A stretch of DNA of 64,000 nucleotides from Nitrosomonas sp. (GTDB lineage: Bacteria > Pseudomonadota > Gammaproteobacteria > Burkholderiales > Nitrosomonadaceae): positions 1,413 through 65,412 of the forward strand of contig JADJBK010000007.1 in the NCBI GenBank assembly GCA_016703745.1. The letters run 5' to 3'. The notes under the pieces are model-generated. The model had not been told where the DNA came from, did no database searches, and worked only from the letters and a program-made list of their open reading frames with translations. Below, one piece after another: positions 32,774 through 42,944 of this stretch; the stretch's first letter is position 1; each line of letters starts with the position of its first letter. The position numbers and the translations under genes are program-made.

Positions 32774-32786
32774 TTTAGCCGCTAAA
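32774..32786. promoter_or_regulatory. Exact IncP-1 KorB operator consensus
   Basis: TTTAGCCGCTAAA matches OB TTTAGCSGCTAAA. Confidence 0.45.
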
Positions 32787-36323: not shown

Positions 36324-37609
36324 GGATCTGTCGCATTAAGCAATTCTTGGCAATTTTTCTTCAATGAAATCATTGAGAGATTTGGTCGAAAAACGCTTAA
36401 GGAACCTCTGATTAATTCCCCGCAAGTAATATAATTCTGCATCAAACTTTTTCGAGAAGCTATTCATGAAACCTTACCAACAGATGAGTTTTGCTGATGC
36501 CGAATACGCCAATAAGGGCAAAGTCACGCGCCGCGAGAAGTTTCTCGATCAACTTGACGGGTTATTGCCTTGGCAGGCTATGATTGATGTTATTGAACCA
36601 CACTATGCGCCAGGCAATGGGCGTGGCCGCAAACCATTTGCCTTGGAATTGATGCTGCGCGCGCATGTTGCGCAAATTATCTACAACTATTCCGATCCGG
36701 GCATGGAAGATGCGCTGTATGAGATTGAATCACTGCGCCGTTTTTGCGGCATTCGTCTGGAAGCCGTGCCGGATGAAAGCACCATTTTGCAATTTCGGCA
36801 TTTACTGGAAAAACACGGGTTAATGGATCAGATCTTCCAGGTCATCAACCAAACGCTGGGTGAGCGTGGGTTGTTCTTGAAAGCCGGCACCATCGTCGAT
36901 GCCAGCCTGATTGCCGCGCCGACTTCAACCAAAAATAAGAGCCGGTCGCGTGATCCAGAAATGCATTCCAGCAAAAAGGGCAATCAATGGTTTTTCGGCA
37001 GCAAGTTTCATATCGGCGTCGATCATGAAACCGGGTTGGTGCATACGCTCAAAGTAACCTCGGGGCATGTCAGCGACGTTGCCGAAGCCGCCGCCCTGCT
37101 GCATGGCGAGGAACAGTTTGTCCATGGCGATGCCGGATATCAGGGGCTGGATAAACGCCCGGAGATGCCGGCAGAAAACCCTCCAGTCTGCGTAATCACG
37201 ATGCGTCCGGGCAAACTGGCCAGGCTCACGAAAGACGATTCCGGCGCGGCTCAACTACTGCGCGGGGCCGCCCGCGAACTGGCGAAACGCCGCGCCAAAG
37301 TCGAACACGTGTTTCGGGATATCAAAATCCGCTTTGGGTATGCTAAAAATCGCTATCGCGGCCTGGCCAAAAATGCGGCCCGTTTGACCTTCCTGACAGC
37401 CATTGCCAACGTCATCCGTGGTGATGCTTATGAACGTCGATGTCTTGTTGCGTCTGAAATTTGAAAACAAGCCAGTAAATGAGCTTGTTTCCAGAGAGGA
37501 ACGGCTGTTTTCATAAAAATCAGCGTCACTATTTGAAGTAGTGGTCAGTTTTTGAGTGACTGCCGTTCAGAATGTTTGTTTTTCAGAGGTTCCTTAATGC
37601 GACAGAGCC
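36324..37609. mobile_element. Second 89-bp MITE, interrupted by IS5
   Basis: 36324-36400 plus 37598-37609 gives 89 bp, 76/89 identical by hand alignment to the reverse complement of 13325-13413. Confidence 0.8.
36401..37593 (+). mobile_element. IS5-group element; transposase 36466-37464
   Basis: GGAACCTCTGA/TCAGAGGTTCC ends, TTAA duplication; RDPEMHSSKKGNQWFFG, GDAGYQG, AKVEHVF. Confidence 0.94.
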
Positions 37610-38909
37610 CCGCTGGACGCTTATAGAGCGAATGGAACGTGCGATTGGAGCTTCCAAGCGTGACGGAAATATGTTTGCCATTCTGTTCATGGATCTCGAC
37701 GGATTCAAGGTCATCAATGATTCTCTTGGGCACTCAACTGGGGATGAAGTCCTGAAGGCGTTCGCGCTGAGATTGCTGCATTGCGTGCGTGGCCGCGACA
37801 CGGTCGCCCGGCTGGGAGGTGATGAATTCGTGGCATTGCTCGAAAATATAGCGACTACGGACGATGCAGCAGAAATGGCGGACAGCATACTCAGCCGCAT
37901 GCGCCAAGGCCTATGGGCCGAAGATCAGCCTCTACAGGTGATGCCGAGTATCGGAATTACACTGTTTCCACAAGACGGGGATACCGTTGAAGAACTGCTG
38001 AAGAATGCGGATGCCGCGATGTACGAAGCAAAACGGGGTGGACGTGGCACCTACCGATTTTTTGAGATAAGTATGAATGAAGCGGCCACTCGCACGCTGC
38101 AGATTCAGCGTGCCTTGCACGAAGCACTCAAAGCCGGTTACTTCTCACTGCATTTCCAGCCAAAATTCCGTGGTAGCAATAGCGAGCTAGTCGGTGCCGA
38201 GGCGCTACTCCGTCTGCACCATCCAGAACTTGGATTTTTGTCACCAATGGGGTTTATCCCGATCGCTGAACGTTCCGGACAAATCGTCCCAATAGGATAT
38301 TGGGTGGTACGTGAAACTTGTCAACAACTACGCCGCTGGAAGGAAGCCGGTTTGCCAGCAATCAAGGTGGCAATCAATTTATCTCCCCGACAACTAGAAC
38401 AGCCGGATCTGATCACGATGATGCTGGATATTGTCCAATCTGAGCAAATCCCATGTGAACAGATTATGTTTGAAATCACGGAAACCGCGGCGATGCAGGA
38501 TGCACTTAAAACAACTGATATGATCCGTAAGTTCCAGGAAAACAACTTCGAGATTGCCATCGACGATTTCGGGACAGGTTATTCGAGCCTTGCCTACTTA
38601 CAACGCTTCCGTGCCAAACAACTGAAAATAGATCGTTTTTTTATCAGTGGTATGGATAAGTGCGGGCCTGAAGGCAGTGTTATCGTTTCTGCAATAATTA
38701 AACTTGCCCATACACTCGGAATGGATGTGGTGGCTGAGGGTGTTGAGACCGATTCGCAACTCAAGAAATTAAAAAGCATGATGTGTGATGAAGTACAGGG
38801 ATTCCTACTGGGCAAGCCTGTAACAGCAGACAAATTTAGCGAATTGCTGCATCAGCATACAGCCCATAATTTAACCAGGTTCCGGGAAAGCCAGGTAAGC
38901 GCTCGATGA
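37572..38909 (+). CDS. 5'-truncated GGDEF-EAL protein
   Basis: MDLDGFK, RGRD I-site, GGDEF, EALLR, DDFGTGYSS, AEGVET; native sequence begins at the MITE junction 37610. Confidence 0.85.
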   Translation: MFVFQRFLNATEPRWTLIERMERAIGASKRDGNMFAILFMDLDGFKVINDSLGHSTGDEVLKAFALRLLHCVRGRDTVARLGGDEFVALLENIATTDDAAEMADSILSRMRQGLWAEDQPLQVMPSIGITLFPQDGDTVEELLKNADAAMYEAKRGGRGTYRFFEISMNEAATRTLQIQRALHEALKAGYFSLHFQPKFRGSNSELVGAEALLRLHHPELGFLSPMGFIPIAERSGQIVPIGYWVVRETCQQLRRWKEAGLPAIKVAINLSPRQLEQPDLITMMLDIVQSEQIPCEQIMFEITETAAMQDALKTTDMIRKFQENNFEIAIDDFGTGYSSLAYLQRFRAKQLKIDRFFISGMDKCGPEGSVIVSAIIKLAHTLGMDVVAEGVETDSQLKKLKSMMCDEVQGFLLGKPVTADKFSELLHQHTAHNLTRFRESQVSAR

Positions 38910-39237: not shown

Positions 39238-39546
39238 TTAGGCTGATGTTTTCGATTCATTCAGCATATGCAGACGTTTAACCTGAATACGATCTATTTG
39301 ATCGCGCATTTGTGCCACATCATAGGCCAGCTGCATTTTGAGCCAATGTTCCGGTGTTCCGCCAAAAGCCTTTGAAACACGAATAGCCATTTCTGGCGAT
39401 ACAGATGCTTTTTCGTTTATAACTCTGGAAAGGGTTGTTCGCACTACACCCAAAGCTTCTGCGGCATCGGTAACACTCAGCCCTAAAGCCTCTATACAAT
39501 CATGTTTAATAATTTTCCCCGGATGTATCGGATTCTTCATAACCAT
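39238..39546 (-). CDS. higA: HigA antitoxin
   Basis: NPIHPGKII..LGVVRTTLSRVIN..SPEMAIR..WLKMQLAYD. Confidence 0.92.
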   Translation of the reverse strand: MVMKNPIHPGKIIKHDCIEALGLSVTDAAEALGVVRTTLSRVINEKASVSPEMAIRVSKAFGGTPEHWLKMQLAYDVAQMRDQIDRIQVKRLHMLNESKTSA

Positions 39547-39558
39547 ATTTTTTACCTC

Positions 39559-39837
39559 CTAATGATAATCTACCAAATCAACATCATAGGACACGCCATC
39601 TTCAAATCTGAAAATAATCCTGTGGTTTCTAGACATGGTAACGCTATAGAAGCCGCGTTTATTTCCCGTCAAAGCATGCAGCCCATAACCGGGTATATCA
39701 ATATCTTCTAGACAACTCGCTTCATCCAAAACAGATAAGAAGCGTTCGGCTTTATCTGCAATATCGGGGCGTAATTTGCTTTTATCGCCTGCCTGATAAA
39801 GACGCTTCAAGCCACGATGCTTAAAATTGTCAATCAT
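39559..39837 (-). CDS. higB: HigB (RelE/ParE superfamily) toxin
   Basis: FKHRGLKRLY..LHALTGNKRGFYSVTMSRNHRIIFRF..VDYH; toxin precedes antitoxin. Confidence 0.92.
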   Translation of the reverse strand: MIDNFKHRGLKRLYQAGDKSKLRPDIADKAERFLSVLDEASCLEDIDIPGYGLHALTGNKRGFYSVTMSRNHRIIFRFEDGVSYDVDLVDYH

Positions 39838-39908
39838 ATCGTACCGTATCGCGTATCGCTTCGCGCGTCAAGCTCTTGTTGTATATATTTGCTACTTTCC
39901 TGATTTCT

Positions 39909-39935
39909 ACTTTACGAATATTTGCGACAGAGTCC
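39909..39935 (-). mobile_element. Orphan IS6-like terminal inverted repeat
   Basis: Reverse complement GGACTCTGTCGCAAATATTCGTAAAGT; partner of 1986-2012. Confidence 0.55.
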
Positions 39936-40225
39936 AATACAGATACTGCTCGTGGTTTGGTTCTTTTGTTTTTCTTTTGGCGTAAATTTTTTTGAATTTT
40001 TAAGCGTAAATTACTACTAAGAGTTGTCTTATTAATGATTTAAGTTTTTTTAGTGGAATATAAAATATTTCTAAAGTAGATAAGTTCTGTGCCGATATAG
40101 GTTATGGATTGTTTTTTGTAATTGTGAGCGTAGCGATCAATAAAATGTTTTTGGTTTGAATGAATTGGTATTTTCATACGAAGGTAAACATTTCTTCTTG
40201 TTATAAAAAACTATCTGATTAATGT

Positions 40226-40310
40226 CCGACACTTAATATTTGAGCTAACCGACACTTAATTTTAATTATGCAAAGTTATGCACAATGCGGCTATTTTTCA
40301 GCGGCTATTT
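40226..40310. promoter_or_regulatory. Candidate oriV downstream of rep
   Basis: CCGACACTTAAT x2 (40226, 40249), DnaA-like box TTATGCACA (40276-40284), GCGGCTATTT x2, adjoining AT-rich tract. Confidence 0.5.
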
Positions 40311-40436
40311 AAGCTAGAAAAGAGAGAGTTTTTCTTTTGGAAGGAATGAATGGCCTCATGAGGGGAGGTTAAGCCCATAAAAGGAGACCATTAGTACTAA
40401 TTGGTGTTGCTAGTAATTTTTAGGAAACGGGGTATC

Positions 40437-41258
40437 CTAAAGCAGCAGTTTTTCAGCCTCTTCGAAACATTTATCTCTGTCCCAGTCCATATTCTTTTCT
40501 TTCAGCTCGGCGGCTTTTAACTGTAGCCGCTTTCGATATTCTATGTCGGGTGGGGCAGTGGTTTTATTTTTGGTATGATTATTTTGTTTTTGACTGACCT
40601 TACTGGCCTTTTTATAGGCTGATTTTAAAGAGAGGGTATTTCTGGCTTGACTGGTTCGGGTAACTAACTTTTCTGCCCAGTCTTTTATTTTATCCTTTAG
40701 ACGTTTACTGGCTTTGCAGCGCTCTTTTTTCAGCATTTCAGCAAGACCGAGAAGTCCAAACAAATCTTTTGTAATTGTCTTAACAGCTGCCAATCCTTTC
40801 CATGACCCGTCGGGTTGTTGTTCGCGTGGCTGTGACACAGTGACAATGCAAGCGATCTTGAGATCATGAATCGCACGCTCTATTCGCCTGGCTTTCATCC
40901 CCGTATCAAGCGCAATGTACTCAAGCGTATAGTTTAAAAATCCATCCGGAGTAGGATTTCCGACTCTTAAACTAACCAAATCTACACGTTTTAACAGCGC
41001 TTTAAGCAAGAGTACGCAAGATTCGCGGCGTTCACTACGTTGTTTACGCGTGCTGCCATTTGCGAAGTTCAGGGAAGGAATTAATTTTGGTCGAATGAAA
41101 TATGCATCGAGGCGTTCCATACATAACGTGAGTATGCGGGGAATACCACCTTTACCTACCAGCGCAGGCTTAACAAGTGTTAATACCGGTTCTACTGGAT
41201 TATGGCCGCAGTAGTTGCCACCACCGTTAATTCTTTTTGTGAATTTTCTCGGTATCAA
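40437..41258 (-). CDS. repA: Plasmid replication initiator, winged-helix type (273 aa, TTG start)
   Basis: RSERRES..LLKALL..DLVSLRV..IALDTGM..RIERAIHDL..LF layout loosely like IncFII RepA; flanked by control elements and origin candidate. Confidence 0.6.
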   Translation of the reverse strand: MIPRKFTKRINGGGNYCGHNPVEPVLTLVKPALVGKGGIPRILTLCMERLDAYFIRPKLIPSLNFANGSTRKQRSERRESCVLLLKALLKRVDLVSLRVGNPTPDGFLNYTLEYIALDTGMKARRIERAIHDLKIACIVTVSQPREQQPDGSWKGLAAVKTITKDLFGLLGLAEMLKKERCKASKRLKDKIKDWAEKLVTRTSQARNTLSLKSAYKKASKVSQKQNNHTKNKTTAPPDIEYRKRLQLKAAELKEKNMDWDRDKCFEEAEKLLL

Positions 41259-41367
41259 AATTATTCCTAGTATCTTTTTTCACTAGGAATAATTGAGTTG
41301 TGATTAAACTTTTTTGTGATTTAGTAGAAAATCTTGTTGCTAAACCCAAAGTTTTGTTATAATGCAT
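41227..41367 (-). CDS. 46-aa leader peptide overlapping the rep start
   Basis: Hand-translated MHYNKTLG..EKIHKKN-TAA; AGGA upstream; out of frame with rep. Confidence 0.5.
   Translation of the reverse strand: MHYNKTLGLATRFSTKSQKSLITTQLFLVKKDTRNNFDTEKIHKKN
41259..41294. promoter_or_regulatory. 13-bp perfect hairpin sequestering the rep RBS
   Basis: AATTATTCCTAGT-N10-ACTAGGAATAATT; AGGA lies in the arm next to TTG. Confidence 0.7.
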
Positions 41368-41368
41368 C

Positions 41369-41452
41369 AACACACTGTTTCCTAGTTTCTAACTGCTTGG
41401 CGTGGAAAGAACTTAACTGTGTGACCCGGCCTCCCAGCCGGGTTTTTCTTTT
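41369..41452 (+). ncRNA. Putative antisense copy-control RNA (~80 nt)
   Basis: Extended -10 TGTTATAAT (41355-41363), intrinsic terminator at 41424-41452, antisense to the rep leader. Confidence 0.6.
41424..41452 (+). terminator. Rho-independent terminator
   Basis: ACCCGGC-CTCCCA-GCCGGGT followed by TTTTCTTTT. Confidence 0.8.
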
Positions 41453-41580
41453 CTGCTTCAGTTAAGTTCAAAAACAAGTGAATCTTCCTGACTTCACTTT
41501 TTATTTTTCTTTTTTAATTTAAAAATTAGAAATTAGAAAAATACTATCCCAACGTACTATACATTGTTTTTCCGCACTAC

Positions 41581-41931
41581 TTATAATTTAATTGCTTTAC
41601 TGAGCTTTTCTGATATCTCAGTCGTAGTAGCTTTATTATTTTCGTACTTGATATTCATCAACCGACCTGTTTCTGGCATTTTGTCAAAACAACTCAGAAT
41701 GTGCTTAATGTATTGTGATTCTTTTTTTTGGTAAAGCACATTATCTTTTTTATCAATATGAACGACTTCCCCAATATTATCTTTTGATGTATTGGCATCT
41801 ACTGCATTGTACAAATTATATATACCAGGGTTTATTCCATGAGCTTTCTTAACTTTTTCTGTTTTCCATTCTCCGCTCATGTCGTTCTGAACTAATTTCT
41901 GTCCATTCATGACGATTAATCGCTTTCTCAT
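41581..41931 (-). CDS. KfrB/TraO-like protein
   Basis: RLIVMNGQKLVQ..KVKKA..PGIYNLY as in IncP-1 KfrB domains. Confidence 0.7.
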   Translation of the reverse strand: MRKRLIVMNGQKLVQNDMSGEWKTEKVKKAHGINPGIYNLYNAVDANTSKDNIGEVVHIDKKDNVLYQKKESQYIKHILSCFDKMPETGRLMNIKYENNKATTTEISEKLSKAIKL

Positions 41932-42056
41932 ATTGAAACGTCACTTTTTAAATGTTTTAACTCAATAATTCTAGAGTTATTCATATTCGAAGGTCGATAT
42001 CAAGCAAAAACATACTATTTTTATTAAAAAGTTATATAAGCATAATATATCTATTT

Positions 42057-42944
42057 TTAAGGATCTGCAAAATTATTTATTTTATTCAGTAAAACTGATA
42101 AATTCATTTGTTCTTTCGTTGTCAGGTTACTAAGCGCTTCAACAGAAATATCTTTTCTTGAGTCAAAGTTTTCATAAAACCGGCTGAAAAGTGATACTAA
42201 TTTCTCGGTCTTTTCGGGGGAAGACCGGTCTTTCTCTATATTCTTAGTCTTATCAATAGTTTTAGAGAGTGGTTCATTTTTATTTCTTGTATTTTTTCTG
42301 TACTTTATTTTGATGAACTGACGTAAAAGATCGACTGATCCGCGTGTGATCTCTTGCTCTGGATTATTAATCCAGTCAATTACGATTTCGGGTGATTCTT
42401 TAAAGGCATAGACAAGTTTATTGATAATTATCGTATCTCGGACTCTGCCAGAATCTAATAATGCTGCAATTGGGTTTGGCAAATCTAACAACATGGAATG
42501 TTGTGAAACGAACGCAGTAGACTTACCGATCATCTTGGCAACGTCCCCGTTCTTAAACCCCTTGGAATATTGATAGCCTATAAAATTAGCGATTTCTCTT
42601 GGGGTTAAGTTGTCTCGCTGTAAATTTTCAATGACTTGGTCAACGTTGGAATAGTCTGTGTCAATAAATGCAGGGATTGTTCTCTTCTGGGCGAGTATGG
42701 ATGCTCGATACCGCCTCGCACCATGATTGATGATAAAGCGTCCTTCCGATTGCGGATTGGGATGTACTGATATCGGGGTTTTTACACCGCGAAGCCGGAT
42801 GGTATCTGCAAGTTCTCGTAAAGTAACAGGGTCAAACTCTGTGCGCGGCTGGTCAGGGTCTTCGTCAATCAGACTTAGATCAATTTCTAATGAGTCAGCT
42901 GTGACAAATTTATTTTTTTTTGTCTCTTTAGTAGCATTTTTCAT
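42057..42944 (-). CDS. korB: KorB/ParB-family protein
   Basis: IDEDPDQPRTEF, GVKTPISV, HGARRYRA, QVIENLQR, HTH. Confidence 0.88.
   Translation of the reverse strand: MKNATKETKKNKFVTADSLEIDLSLIDEDPDQPRTEFDPVTLRELADTIRLRGVKTPISVHPNPQSEGRFIINHGARRYRASILAQKRTIPAFIDTDYSNVDQVIENLQRDNLTPREIANFIGYQYSKGFKNGDVAKMIGKSTAFVSQHSMLLDLPNPIAALLDSGRVRDTIIINKLVYAFKESPEIVIDWINNPEQEITRGSVDLLRQFIKIKYRKNTRNKNEPLSKTIDKTKNIEKDRSSPEKTEKLVSLFSRFYENFDSRKDISVEALSNLTTKEQMNLSVLLNKINNFADP

Follow-up and report, generated by a model that had tools for sequence, protein, structure and literature searches.

We analysed a window of 64,000 nucleotides (nt) of Nitrosomonas sp. DNA, with a focus on a plasmid replication gene, rep, and the sequences that flank it. 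The gene is preceded by an RNA hairpin that contains its Shine-Dalgarno sequence, by a leader open reading frame (ORF) running through this hairpin, and by a predicted antisense RNA encoded on the opposite strand. Two iterons, a DnaA box and an AT-rich tract are found downstream (Table 1). It is likely that these elements form a complete theta-type replicon of the pRA2 (RepA-RA2) family, with its copy number set by the antisense RNA. More than 100 related loci support, through conserved and covarying elements, the functional logic suggested by this order, in which the antisense RNA would cover the ribosome site of the leader, the leader would be read through the Shine-Dalgarno hairpin, and the origin would lie downstream. 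Most of the parts had been proposed in a preliminary description, and we recovered them in the sequence: the extended -10 promoter, the terminator of an ~80-nt antisense RNA (predicted at ~41370-41450 by folding and a terminator scan), the 13-bp hairpin around the rep AGGA, the two repeats with a DnaA-like box downstream of rep, and an adjoining IncP-like transfer backbone. The 46-codon leader ORF that it had placed at 41367-41227 is present, with its AGGA in the antisense-complementary region and its stop at the position claimed, but its start is more likely at a codon further upstream.

Table 1. Positions of the replicon and its control features within the window
Feature	Position	Strand	Remarks
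Two 21-nt elements (TACGCT.A..AAT..AAAAAA, rep strand), 124 bp apart	39988..40132		AT-rich tract beyond the iterons
Two iterons, ATTAAGTGTCGG on the rep strand, 23 bp apart	40226..40260	-	Probable Rep binding sites
DnaA box, TTATGCACA	40276..40284	+	~16 bp from the iterons
rep gene, 273 amino acids, TTG start	40437..41258	-	ORF list; RepA-RA2 (pRA2) family initiator, central winged-helix domain
Leader ORF, 48 codons from GTG 41373 or 46 from ATG 41367	41227..41373	-	Runs through the hairpin; 32-nt overlap with rep in another frame
RNA hairpin, 13-14 bp, 3' arm with rep Shine-Dalgarno AGGA (41268-41265)	41259..41294	-	Ends at the TTG
Antisense RNA promoter: TTGTTG, 18 nt, extended -10 TGTTATAAT (41355-41363)	41334..41363	+	Sequence and conservation
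Predicted antisense RNA, ~80 nt: stem-loop 41371-41423 plus terminator	41370..41452	+	Fold, terminator scan; 5' end inferred
Leader Shine-Dalgarno AGGA, within the antisense-complementary region	41380..41383	-	Sequence; invariant in 8 close relatives
Hypervariable apical loop of the antisense/target stem-loop: CUUGGCG in the antisense RNA, CGCCAAG in the mRNA	41394..41404	+	
Intrinsic terminator of the antisense RNA: GACCCGGC-loop-GCCGGGTT, then T run	41423..41454	+	Terminator scan

Judged by homology, Rep is a member of the RepA-RA2 family, a group named by Bardaji et al. 2017 (PMC5304414). Its best tblastn match is an unannotated ORF of a Spongiibacter plasmid (52.5% identity across 95% of the query). 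Homology to the RepA of the Pseudomonas alcaligenes plasmid pRA2 (NC_005909) extends over residues 4-180 with 54.2% identity (tblastn, E = 8e-47), and falls on a 276-amino acid ORF starting MALEKRPYVPRVNGGGNYCGH. The minimal replicon of pRA2 was defined experimentally by Kwong et al. 1998, as cited in PMC5304414. Homologues of Rep were located by tblastn in 325 plasmid records, including Pseudomonas, Burkholderia, Aeromonas and Legionella, and 151 matching proteins were found in a large protein database. An N-terminal motif, R.N.GGN[YF]CGH, is invariant among the family members, and the numbering of pLM8P2 and of other family plasmids starts at the rep homologue. No Pfam (E <= 0.1) or NCBIfam model matched Rep, a profile search with Rep against the sequences of the PDB gave no match, and neither did a megablast search of PLSDB with the replicon region. 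An AlphaFold2 model of Rep (predicted local distance difference test score, pLDDT, of 82) places a winged-helix domain in the centre of the protein, for which Foldseek returned only generic winged-helix folds from the PDB. In distant relatives from Methylococcales, Competibacter and others (L028-L068), many of them on long contigs, only the N-terminal two thirds of Rep are common; these may represent a differently regulated or integrated branch. Family Rep proteins are also encoded by clinical P. aeruginosa plasmids of ~30-110 kb, L003 (NZ_MN433456) and about 90 others, where they are labelled 'hypothetical protein'. The ORF called in L003 begins well within the rep gene, and MOB-suite assigns this record no replicon type.

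We next compared the region upstream of rep among 145 homologous loci from genomes and metagenomes, which reduce to 61 non-redundant upstream clusters. These clusters are phylogenetically non-independent, and the family-wide ratios given here are thus descriptive. Our close-relative set consists of the window and seven other distinct control-region sequences, from plasmids of 74-100% Rep identity, and every control element is retained in all seven. In the antisense promoter, the TATAAT and the TG are unchanged in all eight sequences, with T, G or A as the base between them. Family-wide, a -10-like hexamer is found at the matching distance on the antisense strand in 17/31 clusters, compared with 2/31 on the sense strand. 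The terminator stem (41423-41444) is followed by TTTTCTTTTCT and represents the sole + strand terminator-like site in 39800-42100. An antisense-oriented terminator is present 90-300 nt upstream of rep in 28 of the 61 clusters, and a sense-oriented one in six, five of which are the same palindromic stems. In a covariance-model alignment the terminator helix aligned well (81% paired, with four compensatory pairs). The second helix aligned poorly (52% paired), and the stem-loop was therefore judged from folds of the individual sequences. It is found 3-13 nt past the terminator in most of the terminator-bearing clusters, with clade-specific stem sequences and commonly a UUGGCG-like loop. As a whole, the predicted antisense RNA would adopt a fold of one long stem-loop followed by the terminator (-26.5 kcal/mol, z = -2.7). 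No Rfam family reached its gathering score in the window, and a search of 41150-41600 at E <= 10 returned only chance-level matches to unrelated families.

Six of the seven other sequences in the close-relative set have an apical loop unlike that of the window, on retained stems. A plasmid with identical Rep (L155) differs from the window at 18 positions in about 1650 nt; five of these are in the apical loop and six in the terminator loop, with two in the 822-nt coding sequence and none in the 620 nt downstream. This is the pattern that would be expected of the specificity (incompatibility) determinant of an antisense regulator. UUGGCG-type motifs are familiar from the antisense loops of IncI, IncB and IncFII plasmids. 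Within the family, the motif is located in the mRNA (sense) loop in 13/31 clusters (e.g. L004, L005, L006, L008, L014-L025) and on the antisense side in 2/31, the window included; the orientation of this U-turn-like motif has thus flipped within the family. Contigs from sludge metatranscriptomes (runs X1 and X2) stop exactly at the variable loop, at 41390-41404, and their loose ends read CTCGCAAC, which is the L069-type loop. Those samples therefore carry the L069 loop variant rather than that of the window. In a large metagenome clade (L073-L148), the antisense terminator lies ~135-175 nt upstream of rep and consists of a 13-14 bp stem with covarying arms and a hypervariable loop, with a separate second stem-loop not evident; here, a single hairpin may serve as both recognition loop and terminator. 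An antisense terminator was not found in the distant Methylococcales and Competibacter clade introduced above, which probably uses another form of control.

The hairpin in front of rep has perfect arms (41294-41282 and 41271-41259), the second of which abuts the TTG at 41258. Its calculated stability is -15 kcal/mol (z = -5.5), and none of 200 shuffled sequences folds as stably. RNAalifold on MAFFT alignments across clades misregistered the arms by 1-2 columns, and we judged the hairpin on a smaller, checked alignment of 11 relatives. The covariation search among leaders of Rep homologues that had been suggested earlier could be carried out, and the helix does covary: 90% of the alignment cells are paired, compared with 42-57% when the partner strand is slid, and 6/10 pairs show compensatory double changes. 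Where only one arm has changed, the result is nearly always a G-U wobble in the sense-strand sequence. This favours a helix formed by the rep mRNA over a DNA palindrome.

The leader ORF connects the antisense target with this hairpin. Its ATG at 41367 is not conserved in the close relatives, but GTG 41373 or TTG 41370 is, 6-9 nt from the AGGA, and the leader thus more likely starts at the GTG or TTG. Counted from the first base of the rep TTG, the stop codon (TAA, 41229-41227) begins 29 nt further on. The frame remains open in relatives of 74-81% Rep identity, despite indels in the loop, and the stop position in close relatives varies from +17 to +56 nt, with one case of in-frame fusion to rep. 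A comparable ORF, which spans the rep hairpin and stops close to the start of rep, is present in 29/34 family clusters, with 12.9 expected from shuffled sequences. In Pseudomonas relatives a short leader ORF ends 1-4 nt after the rep start, a geometry like that of tap in R1/R100, and a 22-codon ORF of this kind is found in pRA2. The fused case is L152, a Logan contig (P0003; 228-1154), where the hairpin loop is 1 nt shorter and leader and rep have been called as one 308-amino acid protein. Either the contig is in error here, or an N-terminal extension of Rep is tolerated.

Downstream of rep, CCGACACTTAAT is found at 40226 and 40249, and matches with up to one mismatch occur six times in the window, with 0.9 expected. 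The TTAAGTGTCGG pair contained in these repeats is located 177 and 200 nt past the rep stop, and 150 and 172 nt past it in pRA2. At least two copies (up to two mismatches, rep strand) are present in 46/57 clusters, and in addition in pRA2 and Drgb7, typically spaced by 22-23 bp and in most cases 110-220 nt past the rep stop. Among the 57 upstream control regions, none contains two copies. The two repeats are the strongest signature of the family. The corresponding repeats downstream of rep in pRA2 lie in a region that is essential there, according to Kwong et al. 1998 as cited in PMC5304414. In the distant clade the copies are spaced by 42-63 bp, and there are often three of them. The DnaA box is by itself not above chance (four in the window, 2.65 expected). 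A DnaA-box-like sequence is located at the aligned site in two of three diverged close relatives, one of which (L153) has the consensus TTATCCACA, and an exact box within 450 nt downstream of rep is found in 10/57 clusters. Together with the 21-nt element, which is present in L070 and L153, the iterons form conserved islands in diverged close relatives, and the 21-nt elements are possibly part of the origin. A further repeat, GCGGCTATTT, occurs twice, 14 bp apart (40287-40296 and 40301-40310), in the interval from the rep stop to the DnaA box; near-identical plasmids carry it, but relatives of 74-80% identity do not.

Based on these features, we propose the following mechanism. The promoter of the rep mRNA would lie upstream of 41454, and transcripts of the kfrB-like gene possibly read through into rep. 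rep would not be translated on its own, with its Shine-Dalgarno sequence locked in the hairpin and a weak TTG start. Ribosomes translating the 46-48 codon leader would pass the hairpin, melt the structure and free the rep ribosome site. Because the leader stop position is variable, with one in-frame fusion, such melting in transit fits better than a stop-start reinitiation. The ~80-nt RNA, made constitutively from the extended -10 promoter on the opposite strand, would pair with the stem-loop in the mRNA, probably starting loop to loop, the loop bearing a UUGG U-turn-like motif. The resulting duplex would mask the leader Shine-Dalgarno sequence and its GTG/TTG start, leaving the leader untranslated and the hairpin shut, and Rep synthesis would drop as the concentration of the plasmid, and hence of the antisense RNA, goes up. 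The loop sequence may set the specificity of incompatibility, which would account for its variation among near-identical plasmids. Rep would then bind the two TTAAGTGTCGG iterons ~180 nt downstream of rep, next to the DnaA box and the AT-rich tract, and replication would begin there. In the Pseudomonas RepJ and RepA-PFP replicons, which contain this type of cassette, replication was lost when the stem-loops were deleted, and incompatibility between related Pseudomonas replicons could be overcome by a few changes in the antisense stem-loop (PMC5304414).

Several observations weigh against this proposal. A consensus scan of the - strand between 41454 and 41581 returned no convincing promoter for the rep mRNA. 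The metatranscriptome contigs of the region are unstranded and break at the variable loop, and indicate presence only. A covariance model (R1) built from Pseudomonas and marine cassettes detects 31 loci at E <= 1e-5 but gives weak matches in the clade of the window (E 0.003-0.09), which probably reflect the terminator alone, and leaves the window itself unmatched. Only the architecture is therefore shown to be common, and the cassette described here is a divergent form. The 81% relative in which leader and rep share one frame does not conform either. Finally, ORFs crossing the hairpin occur by chance at 0.2-0.45 per locus under a loose criterion, which makes the leader the least secure element of the mechanism. 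It is thus conceivable, if unlikely, that antisense control is real and the leader incidental, with the antisense RNA exerting a direct effect like that of RNAI on the rep leader of ColE2, or changing the fold of the mRNA, for example via the conserved 11-nt complement flanking the terminator: GAACTTAACTG (41469-41459) can pair with CAGTTAAGTTC (41419-41409) in the mRNA. Besides the chance frequency, the variable frame and stop position among close relatives are in line with an incidental leader, as is the RepJ replicon, where deletion of repI was without effect, and Bardaji et al. describe pRA2-type cassettes as leaderless (PMC5304414). However, the antisense RNA stops ~75 nt upstream of the hairpin (41370 compared with 41294) and ~110 nt upstream of the rep start. 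It is clear of the rep Shine-Dalgarno hairpin, and its signal must therefore cross a gap, as a translated ORF does. In addition, the leader Shine-Dalgarno sequence is correctly spaced to the GTG/TTG, clade-invariant and located inside the antisense target, and the ORF stays open in AT-rich relatives and is enriched family-wide.

The inverted repeat before rep could in principle be a DNA operator for a repressor or for autoregulation by Rep, or the antisense RNA could attenuate rep transcription, the mode known from pT181 and pIP501. Autoregulation commonly acts at inverted repeats in rep promoters, and UUUUG follows the hairpin. We nevertheless consider both versions very unlikely, as the sense-strand U-G wobbles preserve an RNA helix while breaking the symmetry of the DNA, and the arm sequences differ entirely between clades yet always contain the Shine-Dalgarno sequence. 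The stem is moreover AT-rich in the window and lacks a U run in GC-rich relatives, and would thus make a poor terminator. Still less probable, to the point of being barely credible, is a single gene in which the leader encodes the N-terminus of Rep, whether a sequencing indel has broken it in two or programmed frameshifting joins its parts. The 308-amino acid protein of P0003 (81% identity) does start with the leader sequence, and there are A-runs in the hairpin loop. Yet 23 contigs (28 index blocks) contain the identical Rep next to a distinct leader ORF, and seven of seven fetched independent assemblies (NCBI, ENA and Logan) encode the identical Rep, with the 46-amino acid ORF called separately in five. 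An assembly indel, raised in the preliminary description as a possible cause of the split, is therefore excluded. The two frames are also retained in relatives with other loop lengths. Family homology starts at the TTG-equivalent codon, which is often TTG or GTG, with the start codon and a Shine-Dalgarno sequence at 6 nt conserved, and the proteins are usually 266-284 amino acids long. Control of Rep synthesis by an antisense RNA acting through leader translation remains our preferred reading.

Further elements are located upstream of the antisense terminator. An inverted repeat, GTGAA-N10-TTCAC (GTGAAGTCAGGAAGATTCAC, 41478-41497), is found ~25 nt upstream of the terminator and is kept in 6/7 close relatives, and represents a candidate operator or promoter element for the rep mRNA promoter. 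In the mRNA (- strand), GAACTTAACTG, just upstream of the terminator hairpin, is perfectly complementary to CAGTTAAGTTC, which forms the 5' half of the stem-loop targeted by the antisense RNA. All close relatives retain the core CTTAACTG / [CT][AG]GTTAAG. When the sense RNA is folded, the structure of minimum energy contains this pairing in place of the target stem-loop, and the leader may therefore switch between two folds. We found no ORF in the 130 nt between the KfrB-domain gene, which ends at 41581, and the terminator, and thus no gene for a CopB-type repressor there. The neighbouring backbone is IncP-like, with genes for KorB, a KfrB-domain protein and proteins of the TrbB/E/F/G/I/L type. 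A search for KorB operators returned one perfect site, at 32774, and none near rep. Directly beyond the origin region, a HigB-like toxin and a helix-turn-helix antitoxin are encoded at 39238-39837 (- strand), likely forming a plasmid addiction module. A GGDEF-EAL gene (37572-38909) and several insertion sequence transposases follow beyond this pair.

According to Bardaji et al., the cassette occurs in Pseudomonas only (PMC5304414); this view, and that of leaderless pRA2-type modules, looks too narrow on both counts. We find the cassette beyond Pseudomonas, on a wastewater plasmid that is AT-rich and has a Trb/KorB/KfrB backbone, which is a modest advance, as is the finding that the Rep iteron TTAAGTGTCGG seems almost invariant across the family. 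A leader ORF, moreover, appears to be general in the RepA-RA2 family. It may be, and we see the chances as even, that the antisense/leader/hairpin cassette is not an exchangeable module specific to Pseudomonas but ancestral, and that it has been inherited together with the TTAAGTGTCGG iteron across the gammaproteobacterial pRA2-type family, with active swapping of recognition loops among near-identical wastewater plasmids. If so, loop swapping would represent incompatibility escape caught in natural populations. The loop variants beside identical Rep offer a natural series to determine how few loop changes make a new incompatibility group. There is also an annotation gap: the Prokaryotic Genome Annotation Pipeline (PGAP) labels Rep 'hypothetical' and often truncates it, and at least one clinical P. 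aeruginosa plasmid (~50 kb) is left without a replicon type. The Rep motif, a non-ATG start behind a Shine-Dalgarno hairpin, the antisense terminator and the TTAAGTGTCGG pair could together serve as a typing signature. The module spans ~1.7 kb and could serve as a compact mini-replicon, derived from a plasmid whose transfer backbone is IncP-like.

We compared the replicon to other antisense-controlled systems. The preliminary description had called the copy control IncFII-style, which holds as an analogy of order and logic. As in the CopA-tap-repA-oriR region of R1/R100, the antisense RNA covers the leader ribosome site, the leader overlaps the rep start, translation of Rep would require that of the leader, and about 150-200 bp downstream of rep there is an origin with a DnaA box. 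The analogy does not extend to detectable homology of Rep, and the replicon is not a member of IncFII. IncFII_repA (PF02387) does not match Rep (E <= 0.1) and is not among the 25 families listed for 33 family members (E <= 10). An hhalign comparison of Rep with R100 RepA is collinear but not significant (probability 3.1%), and a search for R100 RepA homologues for an IncFII profile (120 listed proteins, all of at least 83% identity) did not improve it. CopA (Rfam) was likewise not matched in the window. The tap leader has 24 codons and stops at the repA start, with an 8-nt repA overlap annotated in R100, whereas our leader is 46-48 codons long, with its end 29 nt into rep, compared with 5-8 nt in IncFII. 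In contrast to IncFII, the rep Shine-Dalgarno sequence is held in a strong local hairpin, and a CopB-like repressor gene was not found.

The IncI-alpha, IncB, IncK and IncL/M replicons (ColIb-P9, pMU720), with the order Inc RNA-repY-repZ, share with our replicon a single antisense RNA with a UUGGCG/CGCCAA loop pair. Leader translation reportedly opens a hairpin that hides the rep ribosome site in these replicons (Asano and Mizobuchi), as we propose for ours. Their Rep is unrelated in sequence, and they have an activating pseudoknot, whereas inspection of the eight close relatives revealed neither a loop-complementary sequence close to the rep site nor any position that covaries with the variable loop. 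In ColE2-type plasmids, a small antisense RNA (RNAI) also represses Rep translation. They differ in having no leader peptide, a primase-type Rep unrelated to ours, and a short single-site origin instead of an iteron pair with a DnaA box. A ColE2-like Rep is combined with a REx-C cassette in pPT23A-family plasmids (PMC5304414).

The closest system is formed by the REx-C/pRA2-type replicons (Kwong et al. 1998; Bardaji et al. 2017, PMC5304414), which share a homologous Rep and the TTAAGTGTCGG pair downstream. The earlier suggestion of a possibly undescribed replicon was thus too strong, since Rep belongs to the RepA-RA2 family, and a REx-C cassette in front of this family has already been described in Pseudomonas plasmids (PMC5304414). 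Our replicon appears to be of a kind known from Pseudomonas, and its layout matches a REx-C control module followed by a rep module. In REx-C, SaL1 is an antisense RNA terminator with A/T-run flanks upstream of rep, and such a terminator is present here. SaL2 is a stem-loop with a variable loop that determines incompatibility; we find the stem-loop structure and a hypervariable loop, which may have this role here. There are also differences from REx-C: the plasmid is AT-rich (32% GC in its control region) and probably does not derive from Pseudomonas, the stem-loop is longer (53 nt compared with 32-42 nt), the UUGGCG-type motif is located in the antisense loop rather than in the mRNA loop as in most other clades, and the leader is long and overlaps rep by 32 nt. 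A repB-like small gene and upstream iterons are not seen here. The order of elements upstream of rep is nevertheless the same in both, with an antisense-oriented terminator, a stem-loop with a variable loop, an antisense -10 element and a structure at the rep ribosome site preceding rep, and the distance from terminator to rep start (~194 nt) is in the range of the REx-C core (175-194 nt).

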